From: a virus
Lineage: Duplodnaviria > Heunggongvirae > Uroviricota > Caudoviricetes
IMG/VR virus record: IMGVR_UViG_2609459774_000004
Length of the DNA stretch: 13,911 bases
Strand: one strand, 5' to 3'
Shown here in pieces: positions 4,769-11,638 of this stretch (position 1 is the stretch's first letter; every line of letters starts with the position of its first letter). Under the pieces are notes generated by a model. That model was given only the letters and a program-made list of their open reading frames with translations, was not told where the DNA came from and made no database searches. A program made the position numbers and the translations under genes.

Positions 4769-4826
4769 AAAAAGGGCGGCAGAGCAGTCACGGAGTAAAA
4801 CTGATACCGCCAAACGTCACCAGAAA
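4769..4826 (-). ncRNA. dicF: DicF small regulatory RNA (53-nt body 4774..4826 plus U-tail)
   Basis: Minus-strand sequence UUUCUGGUGACGUUUGGCGGUAUCAGUUUUACUCCGUGACUGCUCUGCCGCCC followed by UUUUU matches DicF as I recall it, including a GC-rich 3' hairpin and U-tract. Located between ydfC and dicB as in Qin. Confidence 0.75.
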
Positions 4827-6353: not shown

Positions 6354-6356
6354 TTG

Positions 6357-6584
6357 ATGCTTAAAGTTGACGCAATTACTTTTTTTGGCAGCAAAACAAA
6401 GCTTGCCAATGCCGCAGGGGTGAGACTGGCAAGTGTTGCTGCTTGGGGGATACTGGTTCCTGAAGGTCGCGCGATGCGTCTACAGGAGGCATCTGGCGGG
6501 GAGCTTCAGTATGATCCCAAAGTTTATGATGAATATCGTAAGACGAAGCGGGCGGGGCGGTTGAACAATGAAAATCACTCCTGA
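6357..6584 (+). CDS. dicC: DicC / Cro-like (YdaS-family) small DNA-binding protein
   Basis: Track ORF 6354..6584 (76 aa from TTG). The ATG at 6357 has GAGGGGG 6 nt upstream. Protein MLKVDAITFFGSKTKLANAAGVRLASVAAWG... has a Cro/YdaS-like HTH pattern and is divergent from the repressor. Confidence 0.75.
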   Translation: MLKVDAITFFGSKTKLANAAGVRLASVAAWGILVPEGRAMRLQEASGGELQYDPKVYDEYRKTKRAGRLNNENHS

Positions 6585-6885
6585 ACAGGCTCGTGAGGCT
6601 CTGGATGCCTGGATATGTCGACCAGGAATGACACAGGAGCAGGCGACGATATTAATCACTGAAGCATTCTGGGCTTTGAAAGAGCGCCCGAACATCGATG
6701 TTCAGCGTGTCACATATGAAGGTGGCGCGATTGATCAGCGAGCGCTTGGCGTTAATCGAGTGAAGATATTTGAACGCTGGAAGGCTATCGACACCAGGGA
6801 TAAGCGTGAAAAGTTCACGGCGCTAGTGCCTGCAATTATGGAGGCTACAGATTATTCCTTACCTCGTGAGTTTTGCCTTTGCTGA
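6568..6885 (+). CDS. YdaT-like (CII-analog family) protein, 105 aa, probably C-terminally truncated
   Basis: Overlaps the dicC 3' end. Shares the ...ERWKAIDTRDKREKF..LVPAIMEA...LPRE pattern I recall from Rac YdaT (about 140 aa). Ends early and overlaps the next ORF by 20 nt in another frame. Confidence 0.55.
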   Translation: MKITPEQAREALDAWICRPGMTQEQATILITEAFWALKERPNIDVQRVTYEGGAIDQRALGVNRVKIFERWKAIDTRDKREKFTALVPAIMEATDYSLPREFCLC

Positions 6886-7333
6886 TTACTCCAGGTCTGC
6901 GGCAAGTAAGGCTCGCTGTGAGCATTGTTCAGGTACGGGATTTTATAATGTATTGCGCGAAGTGGTGAAACACTACAGACGCGGGGAATCTGTAATCAAG
7001 GAAGAATGGGTGAAGGAACTATGTCAGCATTGCCATGGTAAGGGCGAAGCCAGCACAGCGTGCAGAGGGTGTAAGGGTAAAGGGATTGTTCTGGATGAAA
7101 AAAGAACCCGGTTTCATGGCGTACCGGTATATAAGATTTGTGGGCGTTGTAATGGAAACCGGTTTAGTCGTTTACCGACCACGCTGGCACGACGTCATGT
7201 CCAGAAGCTGGTACCAGACCTGACCGATTATCAGTGGTATAAGGGGTATGCGGACGTCATTGGTAAACTGGTAACAAAGTGCTGGCAGGAAGAAGCATAC
7301 GCGGAAGCGCAATTGAGGAAGGTGACGAGATAA
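6866..7333 (+). CDS. Cys-rich zinc-finger ORF (four CxxCxGxG/R DnaJ-like repeats), 155 aa; possibly the 3' remnant of a Q-like late antiterminator
   Basis: Repeats CEHCSGTG, CQHCHGKG, CRGCKGKG, CGRCNGNR. Only a GTG start with no Shine-Dalgarno and no internal ATG; upstream in-frame stop at 6824-6826. It occupies the position of quuQ relative to cspF/cspB/essQ in Qin. Could equally be annotated as a pseudogene. Confidence 0.4.
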   Translation: MSFAFADYSRSAASKARCEHCSGTGFYNVLREVVKHYRRGESVIKEEWVKELCQHCHGKGEASTACRGCKGKGIVLDEKRTRFHGVPVYKICGRCNGNRFSRLPTTLARRHVQKLVPDLTDYQWYKGYADVIGKLVTKCWQEEAYAEAQLRKVTR

Positions 7334-7364
7334 ATGATTTTTGCTGAAGATGGCGACATGATGT

Positions 7365-7393
7365 TTGCATTTTTCAAAAAATATGGATAAAAT
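7365..7393 (+). promoter_or_regulatory. Near-consensus sigma-70 promoter (TTGCAT-17-TAAAAT), candidate late promoter (pR'-like)
   Basis: -35 TTGCAT at 7365-7370, 17-nt spacer, -10 TAAAAT at 7388-7393, about 30 nt after the Cys-rich ORF stop, where lambdoid late promoters sit. Confidence 0.45.
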
Positions 7394-7437
7394 TTTTTCA
7401 ACGATGGGCTTTGTATACCCGACGTTAAGAAAAAGTA

Positions 7438-7463
7438 GAAAACCTGCTGATGAGCGGGTTTTG
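7438..7463 (+). terminator. Hairpin with U-rich tail about 45 nt downstream of the candidate late promoter (tR'-like)
   Basis: AAAACCUGC-ugauga-GCGGGUUUU: 6-bp core stem with one G-U pair, extended by A/U pairs, followed by a G then more Us. Weak as an intrinsic terminator. Confidence 0.35.
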
Positions 7464-7754
7464 TGCTTTAAATGGGGCAATGGTAATGTTGAATCTCATC
7501 CCGGGACTCATGTCTGTTAACTTATTATTTAGCTGGTGACTTGGTTATTTGCCTGATGTTTAAAATGTTTTCTTCCAGTACAATGTCCCTAAACACAATG
7601 AGTCTGCTTATTATATTATTAGCAGAGCTATTACGGCCAAAGTACAGCATAAGCTTTTAAAGCCAATCAACCAGTCATCAAGACAGACGGGGTTATTCAT
7701 AAAAACTCTCCATGTGTGATCCGATGGGGCCTGAAATTAAAGCTTTAATATAGC

Positions 7755-7967
7755 TCATGAAAGGTAAACATTGGCAGCTGAAGGGCCACGCAGACCATTT
7801 ATCCGGCAAAATTCCACGCGTAATCCGGTGGTAATTTCTTCTGCATCGCGGAGATTGAGCGCTGAAACATGAAGCTGGACATCGATACGACCATCGGATG
7901 GGGTGATAAGACCCTTGCCGCTTTTGCCGTCAAAGGTTTTGACAATTCCTGTCATTTTACGGGACAA
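7755..7967 (-). CDS. cspF: Cold-shock-domain protein, CspF/CspH subfamily, 70 aa
   Basis: [27 protein letters not shown]...[20 protein letters not shown] matches the CspF/CspH pattern I recall. Divergent from a cspB-like gene as in Qin. cspF versus cspH cannot be resolved by eye. Confidence 0.85.
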
Positions 7968-8267
7968 AAAAATTCCTTAATACTGATAACTTGGCGCACT
8001 ATACACACGTTCCTGAAGAAAGCTATAGTTTTTTGATGGGGTTGAAGATGGCTGGATGTCTAAAATAAACATTGCTTCATATGTTCAACTATGCGTTAAT
8101 GATTGCGTCGGTTTGAAGAACAGACGATATACGAAGTAGTTTACTAAAGCAGTTCTCATTTCAGGTGTTATTCACTTATTCCTTCTTTGAGTCTCTCCAA
8201 TTAAGTACGAAGTCGTTTCTGTTATGCAAACCATTTATGCCGAAAGGCTCAAGTTAAGGAATGTAGA
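7968..8267. promoter_or_regulatory. Divergent promoter and long 5'-UTR region between the cspF-like and cspB-like genes
   Basis: 300-bp AT-rich intergenic region between divergent cold-shock genes; cspA-family genes typically have long 5' leaders. No specific element mapped. Confidence 0.35.
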
Positions 8268-8483
8268 ATGTCAAATAAAATGACTGGTTTAGTAAAATGG
8301 TTTAACGCTGATAAAGGTTTCGGCTTTATTTCTCCTGTTGATGGTAGTAAAGATGTGTTTGTGCATTTTTCTGCGATTCAGAATGATAATTATCGAACCT
8401 TATTTGAAGGTCAAAAGGTTACCTTCTCTATAGAGAGTGGTGCTAAAGGTCCTGCAGCAGCAAATGTCATCATTACTGATTAA
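8268..8483 (+). CDS. cspB: Cold-shock protein CspB-like, 71 aa
   Basis: [67 protein letters not shown]... carries the RNP1/RNP2 motifs of the CspA family and the CspB-type variable residues. AAGGAA Shine-Dalgarno upstream. Confidence 0.9.
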
Positions 8484-8764
8484 AATTCATCGCTCGTCTG
8501 TATACGATAACGAAGAAGGCTGATGCCTGAGTAGAGATACGGACAGAGTAGTGAATATTGGATCTCTTTAATAAAAAGTAAGGAGGTCCAATACATGAAA
8601 CAATGGCTAGCATATTTGGCAAAATCTTAATCAGGAAAAGTATGCTAACCATTGTGGTGAAGTGCAGGTTTGCTGCATGAATAGTTTTACAGCAGAAGCT
8701 AACTGCTGGCATGGCAAAACAAAGTGCGTAAGTGGATGACTCCCACAAAAAGCACCACAATCTC

Positions 8765-8790
8765 AAACCCGCTCAGGCGGGTTTTTTATT
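8765..8790 (+). terminator. Rho-independent terminator (possibly bidirectional)
   Basis: AAACCCGC-ucag-GCGGGUUUUUUAUU: 8-bp GC-rich stem, tetraloop, U6 tail, preceded by an A-tract. Lies downstream of cspB on the plus strand and of the 56-aa zinc-ribbon gene on the minus strand. Confidence 0.6.
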
Positions 8791-8846
8791 ATCTGCTTTA
8801 AATATATTATTAAAATATAAAAAATACTTGTTACTAATAAAATCAA

Positions 8847-9017
8847 TCAGGCTACAGCTTTAAGATTTGTCTGGAATACTTTGTTGCAATGAGGGCAGAT
8901 CAAAAGGGCACCTTTTTGTACTCTTGAAAAACTGTGTTCTGACTCTTGGGTGCAGTTTGGGCAGGAACATTTAACGAGATAATTACGGCGTGATTTTGAG
9001 TTTTTACGTTCTGACAT
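8847..9017 (-). CDS. Small zinc-ribbon protein (C-x-C-x2-C ... C-x2-C), 56 aa; YnfU/YmcF-like
   Basis: Internal Met of track ORF 8847..9068: MSERKNSKSRRNYLVKCSCPNCTQESEHSFSRVQKGALLICPHCNKVFQTNLKAVA. AGGAA Shine-Dalgarno 6 nt upstream. Family name from memory of csp-adjacent small proteins in K-12; not verified. Confidence 0.5.
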   Translation of the reverse strand: MSERKNSKSRRNYLVKCSCPNCTQESEHSFSRVQKGALLICPHCNKVFQTNLKAVA

Positions 9018-9236
9018 AGGCTTTTCCTGTATAAATGGCCGTATACAGTACACTAAATATGAAAACATTTCTCGTATTATTATTTTATATATGACTTTCT
9101 TTCAAAATAATTACCCACATTTTTAATGTGTATGTTTTTTTAGCGCCGTTGAGAACAACGTGTGCTGTCAAAACTACCCCGTAGACTCCGATCTTTTCAA
9201 ACATATTGCACCATCCGTGTACATCGGGGTGAGGAT

Positions 9237-9452
9237 ATGAAATCAATGGATAAGTTAACAACAGGTGTTGCCTATGGCACATCGGCGGGTAATGCTGGTT
9301 TCTGGGCATTGCAGTTACTCGATAAAGTAACTCCGTCACAGTGGGCTGCAATCGGTGTGCTGGGTAGCCTGGTTTTTGGCCTGCTGACGTATCTGACAAA
9401 TCTTTATTTCAAGATTAAAGAAGACAGGCGTAAGGCTGCGAGAGGAGAGTAA
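9237..9452 (+). CDS. essQ: Class II holin (S21-type pinholin) with dual-start motif MKSM, 71 aa
   Basis: Internal Met of track ORF 9162..9452 with GAGGA Shine-Dalgarno. [29 protein letters not shown]...[13 protein letters not shown] resembles EssD/EssQ and phage 21 S. Met1 and Met4 give the antiholin/holin dual start. Symbol assigned by synteny. Confidence 0.85.
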
Positions 9453-9456
9453 TCCA

Positions 9457-9764
9457 ATGACTCAAGACTATGAACTGGTTGTGAAAGGAGTCCGTAATTT
9501 TGAGAATAAAGTTACGGTAACTGTAGCCTTACAGGACAAAGAACGCTTTGACGGTGAAATTTTTGACCTGGATGTCGCCATGGACCGTGTTGAAGGAGCT
9601 GCGCTGGAGTTTTATGAGGCAGCAGCCAGAAGGAGCGTCCGGCAAGTCTTCCTGGAAGTAGCAGAAAAATTGTCAGAAAAAGTTGAGTCTTATCTGCAGC
9701 ATCAATACTCCTTTAAGATTGAAAATCCTGCCAATAAGCACGAGCGTCCTCATCATAAATATCT

Positions 9765-9768
<4 letters not shown>
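9457..9768 (+). CDS. ydfR: YdfR-like protein (DUF1327-type), 103 aa, inside the lysis cassette
   Basis: AGGAGAG Shine-Dalgarno. 103 aa between holin and endolysin, as ydfR is in Qin. Its stop overlaps the endolysin start (ATGA). Confidence 0.75.
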
Positions 9769-10792
<1,024 letters not shown>

Positions 10793-11155
10793 GGTAATAT
10801 TAAATCGGAACATTTACATCGCGGAATGTAAAATTTAAATAAAAAGGACTCTTCCATGAGCCAAAATTCCTGAAATCTTAAGGGTAAGATAAAAGGTCTT
10901 AATCAGAATGACACGTTTTATTAATAAATAAAGCTATTCTTTCATTGCTGTGTTTTTCTTTACAAAAGTAATCCTTGCTATGGGTGGTTAATCATGAGTT
11001 AATGGTGTTCTGGTTTGTTACAAATTTATCTGAAGCAGTCATTGTTATAATTTTATTATTTGTACCTCTTGAGATTTCCTTGTTGGTTTTTCTCTCTGAT
11101 ATTTTTTTTTCGGACCATTCTGCCCAAGGGCTAATTTCTTCAAAAGGTAATAATT

Positions 11156-11368
11156 ATGTCTAACAAAATGACTGGTTTAGTGAAATGGTTTAACCCTGAA
11201 AAAGGTTTTGGTTTCATCACGCCGAAAGATGGCAGCAAAGATGTGTTTGTCCATTTCTCAGCAATTCAGAGCAACGATTTCAAAACATTAACTGAGAATC
11301 AGGAAGTTGAATTTGGTATTGAGAACGGACCTAAAGGTCCTGCCGCTGTTCATGTAGTGGCGCTTTGA
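11156..11368 (+). CDS. cspI: Cold-shock protein CspI, 70 aa
   Basis: [70 protein letters not shown] matches CspI of Qin as I recall it. Long AT-rich 5' leader upstream. Confidence 0.9.
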
Positions 11369-11567
11369 GGTAGACAATATTACAAACCATATTCACTTTA
11401 GATGCCCGTGTTGTCATGGTTCCCAGTATAGAACATCATCTTTTGATGTTTCTGACATGAATCCTTTCGGGGCAAAATGTATCTTTTGTAAATCAATGAT
11501 GATTACATTTGATAATATTTCACAATACTTAAATGTTAGCCATCTGTCGTTAGATTTAAGAAAGTGA
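11358..11567 (+). other. Candidate second small zinc-ribbon ORF (paralog of the 8847..9017 protein) with no canonical start upstream of its Cys motifs
   Basis: Hand-translated frame: ...HFRCPCCHGSQYRTSSFDVSDMNPFGAKCIFCKSMMITFDNISQYLNVSHLSLDLRK*. Cys spacing (C-x-CC ... C-x2-C, with SF in the linker) parallels the 56-aa protein. The only ATG is at 11457, after the first Cys cluster. The stop is 8 nt before the terminator hairpin. May be a degenerate paralog or use a non-canonical start. Confidence 0.25.
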
Positions 11568-11574
11568 AAATGAA

Positions 11575-11597
11575 GGCTCCTTCGGGAGCTTTTTTGC
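11575..11597 (+). terminator. Rho-independent terminator after the cspI unit
   Basis: GGCUCC-uucg-GGAGCU followed by UUUUU: 5-6 bp stem with UUCG tetraloop and U-tract. Confidence 0.5.
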
Positions 11598-11638
11598 TTA
11601 GTGTCTAGTCGATGGATACTCACATATTACGGTAACAT

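Follow-up and report, generated by a model that had tools for sequence, protein, structure and literature searches.

What directs late transcription in a Qin-like prophage, and what happens to that transcription when the antiterminator gene is broken? This question is raised by the gap between the antiterminator gene ydfT (quuQ) and the cold-shock gene cspF in a viral sequence of 13,911 nucleotides (IMG/VR record IMGVR_UViG_2609459774_000004; its full length is called the window here), which is a Qin-like cryptic prophage of Escherichia coli. From 6843 to 11599, the window is 99.7% identical to E. coli K-12 MG1655, and between 6843 and 8600 the two differ only at 6845 and 7445. A window position x is converted to NC_000913.3 (minus strand) by 1642489-(x-7333), and the gene annotation was transferred from K-12. 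For the gap, an earlier note had proposed a geometry in which a lambdoid late promoter is followed by a terminator that is subject to antitermination by Q. This is borne out by a gene of the Q-lambda family upstream and by a promoter register that agrees base for base with that of lambda and P22. We consider it about 85% probable that positions 7365-7469 are the late regulatory cassette of a Qin-type lambdoid prophage, with the late promoter PR', a pause element, a presumed Q-binding element (QBE) and the terminator tR'. This kind of element is textbook knowledge, and the general picture is unchanged; the E. coli copy, however, is unannotated. The value of the analysis lies in this annotation and in two side leads, a short RNA that may act in trans and a 5'-terminal stem-loop that may be conserved.

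A probable late promoter and its pause element

A cassette of the Q-lambda type consists of a Q gene, PR', a pause element dependent on sigma70 (the SDPE), a terminator and late genes (PMC9388147). In the window, a (truncated) gene with the PF03589 domain is found upstream, followed by the pause element sequence, a terminator and late genes on the same strand. All elements of the cassette are on the plus strand. The -35 hexamer TTGCAT (7365-7370) is in register with TTGACT of lambda and P22. It is followed by a 17-nt spacer, TTTTCAAAAAATATGGA (7371-7387), and by the -10 hexamer TAAAAT (7388-7393), which is TAAGAT or TAGGAT in relatives. TTGCAT-17-TAAAAT is thus found in the sequence at 7365-7393, exactly where the earlier note had placed it.

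Downstream of the promoter, AACGATGGG is identical to the lambda SDPE and has the same 6-nt distance from the -10 hexamer. Its first part, AACGAT, is a -10-like sequence at which, in lambda, sigma70 holds the polymerase in the promoter-proximal pause where Q loads. The predicted element in the window is AACGAT (7400-7405), followed by GGG; these nine bases (7400-7408) are equivalent to lambda +1 to +9. By homology with lambda, transcription is predicted to start at A7400, which is 67 nt past the stop codon of the Q gene. A start near 7400 had been anticipated, and A7400 is exactly the base homologous to lambda +1. In the lambda record, the first A of AACGAT is position 44587, which we take to be the start of 6S RNA.

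When the sequences are compared, lambda has TTGACT-17-TAAATT-TGACTC-AACGATGGG and the window has TTGCAT-17-TAAAAT-TTTTTC-AACGATGGG. The register -35(6)-17-(-10)(6)-6-AACGATGG is common to the window, K-12, SfV, the Shiga toxin 2c (Stx2c) phages, lambda and P22. AACGAT at +1 to +6 is identical in lambda and P22. The GenBank record of P22 annotates P late, a lambda-like +1 and t late at positions homologous to those in the window.

The QBE of lambda PR' sits between the -35 and the -10 hexamer, which is the position of the spacer. Within the YdfT clade, 13 of the 17 spacer columns are invariant (94% pairwise identity). The spacer is conserved in this clade and is unlike that of lambda, which is consistent with a clade-specific QBE for the YdfT-type Q. 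As judged from the pause consensus G(-10) Y(-1) G(+1), the T13/G14 step may place the pause earlier than in lambda, where it is at +16/+17.

The conservation of the cassette was analyzed for 86 loci with a YdfT-type Q (at least 94% identical), which yield 26 distinct downstream sequences. Pairwise identity among these variants is 1.00 for the -35 hexamer (which is invariant), 0.94 for the spacer, 0.90 for the -10 hexamer and 0.78 from the -10 to +1. It rises again to 0.97 for AACGAT and 0.92 for +7 to +17, and drops to 0.59 in the linker before the hairpin, 0.54 in the hairpin loop and 0.33 after the T-run. As judged from these variants, the conservation profile peaks on the functional elements. 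By the same alignment, the module ends at a mosaic joint just past the terminator, where lambdoid phages swap their late regions. The module adjoins this Q type in the deposited genomes of the phages SfV, Ayreon, mEp460, 2H10 and Tritos, of 15 Stx2c-converting phages and of PhiR42_1. The SfV record labels the homologous hairpin a "putative rho-independent terminator", and the Ayreon record labels it a terminator.

In E. coli, the module (142 bp) is present as a single copy in 1626 of 5426 complete genomes, and a megablast search with the surrounding region (6500-8600) resulted in partial matches in 5421 of the 5426. No annotated feature was found under the 142-bp module among the RefSeq matches listed.

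Some Q genes with the PF03589 domain (loci L090, L091 and L094; phages Fraca, vB_EhrS_59 and Klebsiella P18-100) are followed by late promoters without AACGAT, e.g. TATGCT...TATGGAGT. Therefore, the lambda-type pause element is not universal in this family.

The same bases can be read as part of an open reading frame (ORF) for a small protein of 51 amino acids (7365-7520, plus strand), and such an ORF is annotated as a "hypothetical protein" in the phage records PhiR42_1, HannyBb and PhiR63_1. We rejected this coding reading, which has next to no chance of being correct. The TTG start codon is the -35 hexamer itself. There are 1- and 2-nt indels among the relatives (alignment columns 69-70 and 106), and the sequences diverge completely past the T-run, which is in the middle of the ORF. 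In addition, the ORF spans the terminator hairpin.

The predicted terminator and a matching 3' end in K-12

The predicted intrinsic terminator tR' (7439-7469, +40 to +70) has a hairpin, AAAACCTGCT-GATG-AGCGGGTTTT, at 7439-7462 (stem 7439-7448/7453-7462, loop GATG), followed by GTGCTTT (GUGCUUU in the RNA). The hairpin begins 45 nt past the -10 hexamer, at the distance first described. It has a free energy (dG) of -14.8 kcal/mol (z = -4.9 versus shuffles). Among the 26 variants, 92.7% of the alignment cells of the terminator helix are paired, and four pairs have changes on both sides, e.g. from C-G to A-U; a T-run is present after the hairpin in every case. When this helix is taken together with that of a 5' stem-loop (see below), 95.5% of the cells are paired, versus 30-59% with slid partners.

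Experimental data are available from K-12. Adams et al. list a Term-seq 3' end at 1642356(-) in LB at an OD of 0.4 (LB 0.4), LB at an OD of 2.0 (LB 2.0) and M63, which is classified as "orphan" (PMC7815308, supplementary file 1). Its average read count in LB 0.4 is 103,591, versus 4,852 for the end of the thrL leader on the same sheet (PMC7815308). The printed flanking sequence puts this 3' end at the C of GGGUUUUGUGC, which is window position 7466 and lies 8 nt past the GC core. This position is typical of intrinsic termination, and the abundant K-12 3' end agrees with the prediction that transcripts stop at the hairpin. With a start at 7400, a 3' end at 7466 results in an RNA of 67 nt.

These data fit the following scheme. 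By homology with lambda and P22, RNA polymerase would start at A7400 and would pause a few bases on while sigma70 holds the AACGAT repeat. Without Q, transcription would terminate at the hairpin and would yield the 67-nt RNA (7400-7466), in which an A-rich linker connects a 5' stem-loop to the terminator hairpin. If a functional YdfT-type Q were present, it would modify the paused polymerase, which would pass tR'. The modified polymerase would then run antisense over ynfS and cspF, and would continue through cspB and a second terminator into the lysis genes. This scheme would identify the abundant "orphan" 3' end in K-12 as the end of a Qin counterpart of lambda 6S RNA, transcribed from the late promoter and terminated at tR'.

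Several points weigh against such a cassette. The first ones concern the promoter, which had been described as near-consensus and strong. This was overstated, as the -35 hexamer matches the consensus in only three of six positions (four of six if read as TTTGCA with an 18-nt spacer). With five of six in the -10 hexamer, the total is 8-9 of 12; lambda PR' scores 9 of 12. The hexamer match alone is not significant, as 11 promoter-like sites turned up when 3.5 kb were scanned generically, versus 7.2 expected. The lambda-type, -35-like TTGACT between the -10 hexamer and the pause element is absent, being TTTTTC in the window and TTTCTC or TTTCCC in relatives. In lambda, this element upstream of the pause element serves the repositioned sigma region 4, and without it, Q loading may be different in detail. 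Promoter activity and start site rest on homology. The supplements from Cappable-seq, SMRT-Cappable-seq and RNET-seq, which may be incomplete, have no entry near 1642422 or 1640446. The literature search found nothing on a PR' promoter under the names quuQ and ydfT, and full-text matching of the promoter and RNA sequences gave nothing relevant.

Other points concern the terminator. The T-run that had been described as a U-rich tail is present, but the U-tract is interrupted (UUUUGUGCU, with U at six of the 9 nt that follow the GC core). A simple terminator scan did not flag the hairpin at 7439-7462. It misses the SfV hairpin as well, because in both cases the stem is extended through A-U pairs and too few T are then left. 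Since the SfV terminator is an annotated one, the negative result reflects a limit of the scanning rule. At position 7445, the window has T where K-12 has C, which weakens the hairpin by about 2 kcal/mol. The T results in a G.U pair in the RNA from the PR' strand, to which the value of -14.8 kcal/mol applies, and in an A.C mismatch in the RNA from the opposite strand (dG -8.9 kcal/mol). Among the 86 loci, only one other (L038) shares T at 7445, and a single E. coli genome (KL53) matches the entire 142-bp module exactly.

The last points concern the 3' ends in K-12. A second 3' end on the same strand, at 1642188(-), was found in LB 2.0 only, with an average read count of 87,904 (PMC7815308). 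It corresponds to window position 7634, comes after a small hairpin, TCTGCT..AGCAGA (7603-7626, plus strand), and is antisense to ynfS. This end lies 168 nt beyond the first one. Thus, some transcription passes tR' in K-12, where ydfT is intact, and termination at tR' is incomplete in LB 2.0. The end at 7634 suggests either read-through of tR' or processing in stationary phase. The 3' end at 7466 could, in principle, also belong to transcripts that start upstream in ydfT.

The origin of this 3' end leads to an alternative, in which the hairpin is a terminator only. It would be the shared two-way end of the early-right ydfT transcript (plus strand) and of cspF-ynfS (minus strand), the hexamers would be relics or due to chance, and the K-12 3' end would come from transcripts starting upstream of or inside ydfT. 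We consider this to be quite unlikely. It is true that the K-12 hairpin is a perfect 10-bp stem on both strands, with an A-rich run before it (nine A in the 16 nt upstream) and a T-run after it. The A-rich linker, AAGAAAAAGUAG (7427-7438), provides a U-rich tail after the hairpin on the minus strand (UUUUCUACUUUUUCUU), where the RNA ends with ...GGGUUUUCUACUUUUUCUU. No other hairpin is found on the minus strand between the ynfS stop codon (7611) and 7464. Furthermore, the A-rich linker co-occurs with a downstream ynfS-cspF pair (49/55 versus 0/23).

Relics or chance would, however, not explain why conservation among the noncoding bases is highest in the hexamers, the spacer and AACGATGGG and why these are found in the exact register of lambda and P22 PR'. 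The module and its hairpin are retained in phages that lack a convergent gene downstream (SfV, Ayreon and the Stx2c phages). The 3' end is abundant in all conditions despite the prophage being cryptic. In the window, T at 7445 leaves the minus-strand RNA with the A.C mismatch mentioned above. Finally, no 3' end in the sense direction of cspF is listed for the range 16418xx-16424xx in the curated K-12 Term-seq data, which is a weak test because cspF expression under these conditions was not checked.

A second use of the hairpin would also be compatible with a late cassette. The association between the A-rich linker and ynfS-cspF fits a bidirectional terminator, and linkage by descent explains it equally well. 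On the PR' side, variants with an A-rich linker have six T of nine in the T-run versus seven to eight in the others. That the hairpin also terminates cspF-ynfS transcripts from the other strand is a realistic option, to which we give slightly less than an even chance. Such a two-way use, the pause element and ynfS had all been overlooked in the earlier note.

The predicted 67-nt RNA and its 5' stem-loop

The predicted 67-nt RNA adopts a two-hairpin fold with a dG of -24.0 kcal/mol (z = -4.9). In the predicted 5'-terminal stem-loop (7400-7426, plus strand), AACG.UGGG (7400-7408) pairs with CCCG.CGUU (7418-7426, +19 to +27). In the 26 variants of the YdfT clade, 99% of the cells of this stem are paired; changes are one-sided only, and those in the 3' arm keep the pairing.

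A survey of the 5' stem covered five Q-lambda clades (YdfT, lambda, P22, EH1910 and HK225), with 55 distinct initial transcribed sequences in total. In nearly all of the 55, the minimum-energy fold pairs nucleotides 1-4/5 with CGUU or UCGUU between +19 and +27, while the inner stems are clade-specific. Loci with the recurring stem-loop include L008, L092, L093 and L096. Of 11 clade representatives, 8 have the first four bases paired, versus 2-12% of composition-preserving shuffles; lambda pairs nucleotides 2-10. In the Yersinia phage YeP2, the sequence is AAGGA...UUCUU, which may be a compensatory flip. The recurrence across clades is suggestive of a conserved structure, with the reservation that the clades are related. 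The simplest idea would be that a 5'-terminal stem protects the RNA from 5'-end-dependent decay. The stem-loop may serve as a 5' stabilizer, for the long late mRNA as well as for the short RNA, or it may be a structure that forms after the 5' end has passed the torus of Q.

It is tempting to speculate that the 67-nt RNA is itself a selected product, a constitutive Hfq-associated regulatory RNA or sponge, which would account for the survival of the cassette in a prophage that is decaying. A precedent is StxS, a short RNA of the Stx phages Sp5 and Sp15 that is transcribed constitutively from PR', ends at tR' in the lysogen and is an Hfq-dependent regulator (PMC7547250); lambda 6S RNA is another (PMC7547250). 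The Qin RNA resembles StxS as a short PR'-tR' RNA. The two differ in that StxS is published as an Hfq-dependent regulator, while the Qin RNA is known here from its sequence and its 3' end. We consider a selected product to be rather improbable, although a number of observations favor it. The 3' end is abundant in three conditions, the two-hairpin fold is stable, and the A-rich linker has AAG-AAA-AAG triplets near the U-tail of the terminator.

A further observation comes from RIL-seq (ligation and sequencing of interacting RNAs) on K-12 Hfq by Bar et al. The data contain a node "cspF.ydfT.IGR" (window 7334-7610), with 70 chimeric fragments and two partners, for which the strand is not given. 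The partner medians of this node (72; 0.950294) equal the means of the rows for ArcZ and for the 3' untranslated region (UTR) of uhpT. However, the node is always first in the chimera, which is target-like, and its small RNA (sRNA) score is 0.0024. RNAduplex predictions for ArcZ were run against the 67-nt RNA and against the intergenic region. The duplex with the 67-nt RNA was no better than with shuffles, in a method that ignores accessibility. The linker is the least conserved part of the RNA among relatives (0.59), and no Rfam family matched the RNA at the gathering threshold. Survival of the cassette needs no selection, as Qin is found in 30% of the genomes, largely by descent.

Two sub-threshold Rfam matches, Phe_leader (20.9 versus 55 bits) and isrK (12.6 versus 50 bits, with coordinates that coincide with the RNA), were dismissed as chance-level, terminator-shaped noise.

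The two side leads may be combined into a broader statement. The 67-nt RNA would be an abundant, constitutive and unannotated RNA of K-12 and about 30% of E. coli genomes that acts via Hfq as a target-like partner or a sponge of ArcZ and the uhpT-3'UTR sRNA, like StxS; and/or the stem-loop at +1 (AACG[A]-CGUU) would be a conserved functional part of Q-lambda cassettes. We regard this as unlikely, though as somewhat less so than selection for the RNA as such.

The truncated antiterminator, related cassettes and the prophage setting

The antiterminator gene upstream of the cassette is a remnant (6843..7333, plus strand); out of 250 codons in K-12, it retains 88-250. Its start had been set to GTG 6866 by the ORF caller. 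Homology to K-12 ydfT begins at 6843 (codon 88); the sequence to the left is unrelated and has a YdaT-like ORF in another frame. The window ORF matches PF03589 with E = 4.7e-32, and intact K-12 YdfT does so with E = 3.6e-54. PF03589 is the Q-lambda family as defined by Yin et al. (PMC9388147). Besides PF03589, the Pfam search matched the DnaJ CXXCXGXG domain. Intact K-12 YdfT (250 aa) can be aligned to lambda Q over its entire length, beginning with residue 1 (33% identity; BLASTP E = 2e-40), and it matches the Q-lambda chains of the PDB entries 7UBM and 7UBN.

Compared to lambda Q, YdfT has a 48-residue insertion (K-12 residues ~120-168, window 6940-7085) with extra CXXCXGXG repeats, which is the region that matches the DnaJ central domain. 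The zinc-ribbon arm of lambda Q contacts the QBE and sigma region 4. The insertion is at the position of this arm, and the geometry of Q loading could be changed by it. YdfT had also been considered as a tandem duplication of Q. This was ruled out, as each of the two Pfam stretches is one half of a single lambda-Q-like protein that is split by the 48-residue insertion.

In lambda Q, residues 1-44 form a torus that narrows the RNA exit channel, a deletion of residues 1-38 abolishes antitermination, and residues 61-113 are part of the DNA-binding body (PMC9388147). Because the segments homologous to the torus and to the DNA-binding body are missing, the window remnant without residues 1-87 is almost certainly inactive. 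The earlier guess that the antiterminator may be nonfunctional thus appears to be correct for the window, where the lost residues 1-87 include the segment homologous to that needed by lambda Q for antitermination. As a consequence of the loss of the first 87 codons, the cassette would be expected only to terminate, barring a cognate Q from another source such as a second prophage. Behind the broken Q gene, it probably makes only the 67-nt RNA.

According to sequence comparison, SfV and the Stx2c phages have orthologs of the cassette, and lambda and P22 have homologs. The window cassette resembles lambda PR'-qut-tR' (6S RNA) in the Q family (PF03589), the register -35/17/-10/6/+1, the first nine transcribed bases (AACGATGGG), the pairing of the RNA 5' end with a downstream CGUU and the intrinsic terminator before the lysis genes. 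It differs from lambda in the spacer sequence, the missing TTGACT-like element and the 48-residue insertion in the zinc region of YdfT. Also, the lambda terminator is at +194, while that in the window is at +40 to +70. Between tR' and the holin gene, the window has 1.8 kb of cold-shock genes and morons, two of which are antisense.

The P22 system with P late and t late (gene 23 antitermination) is alike in Q family, promoter register and AACGATGG. Its terminator is annotated at +31 to +59, and the terminated RNA is about as short. A terminator this near to the start is therefore normal for the family. The differences are that the holin gene of P22 is ~300 nt past the terminator, with no antisense genes, and that promoter, spacer and -35-like element are lambda-like.

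The closest relatives are found in SfV, Ayreon, mEp460, 2H10 and the Stx2c phages. They have the same Q clade (at least 93% protein identity), and the module follows Q at 81-96% DNA identity. Their copies differ by having TAAGAT as -10 hexamer, a longer T-run (7-8 T of 9), a linker that is not A-rich and downstream genes on the same strand. The inspected records of these phages have no annotation of a promoter or pause element. In the Stx2c phages, the module precedes the tRNA genes, at a place where stx2c would be expected. The weak -35 hexamer, the lack of a -35-like element by the pause site and a Q with an enlarged zinc-finger arm may have a bearing on the amount of toxin made by Stx2c phages. 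The module is also a natural variant for asking which features of lambda PR' are needed for the loading of Q-lambda. In an attempt to link the Stx2c Q to the "q21" allele of Shiga toxin-producing E. coli (STEC), a primer sequence for STEC "q21" matched no locus.

Downstream of tR', two genes are convergent with PR'. One is ynfS (7611-7700, minus strand; RefSeq b4750), which codes for a small protein of 29 aa that has been detected by epitope tagging (PMC6001520). The other is cspF (7755-7967, minus strand). They are followed by cspB (8268-8483, plus strand), by ynfU (minus strand), which lies between cspB and the lysis genes, and by the lysis genes essQ-ydfR-rrrQ-rzpQ (9237-10792, plus strand). 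The lysis genes are 1.8 kb downstream of the cassette and are the presumed targets of antiterminated transcription from PR'. On its route to the holin gene, read-through transcription would be antisense across ynfS and cspF and would then pass cspB, a terminator at 8765-8784 and, again antisense, ynfU. It was correctly foreseen that read-through would cross cspF before reaching cspB and the lysis genes; ynfS is crossed as well. The "built-in conflict" that had been seen in this arrangement is real as geometry. Its cost is speculative. The same gene order is found in the 48.7-kb record PhiR42_1, which was submitted as a complete phage genome. It is not unusual for a late operon to contain an antisense moron, as exemplified by lambda bor.

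The second terminator, a strong hairpin at 8765-8784 (AAACCCGCTCAGGCGGGTTT), was found by the terminator scan in the gap between cspB (plus strand) and ynfU (minus strand), and it resembles another bidirectional terminator. On the ynfU strand, K-12 has a Term-seq 3' end at 1641060, which is window position 8762. The window further has the sRNA DicF (4774-4825, minus strand) and cspA-type thermoregulator 5' UTRs before cspB and cspI (8107-8499 and 11009-11395, plus strand), all matched at the Rfam gathering score.

The position where homology to ydfT begins, 6843, is a prophage deletion or recombination joint. Compared to K-12, relBE, hokD, rem, ydfU and the first 87 codons of ydfT are missing at this joint. 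To its left are a cro/dicC-like ORF (6354-6584) and the ORF in another frame mentioned above (6568-6885), which codes for 105 aa with weak similarity to YdaT (E = 0.0014).

About 110 nt past cspB, the region 8575-8630 (plus strand) contains a mini-ORF of 11 codons (MKQWLAYLAKS, ATG at 8596) together with a strong Shine-Dalgarno sequence, AAGGAGG. Exactly at the start codon of this mini-ORF, K-12 has two very abundant Term-seq 3' ends, 1641226 (average read count 604,404) and 1641224 (1,233,565).

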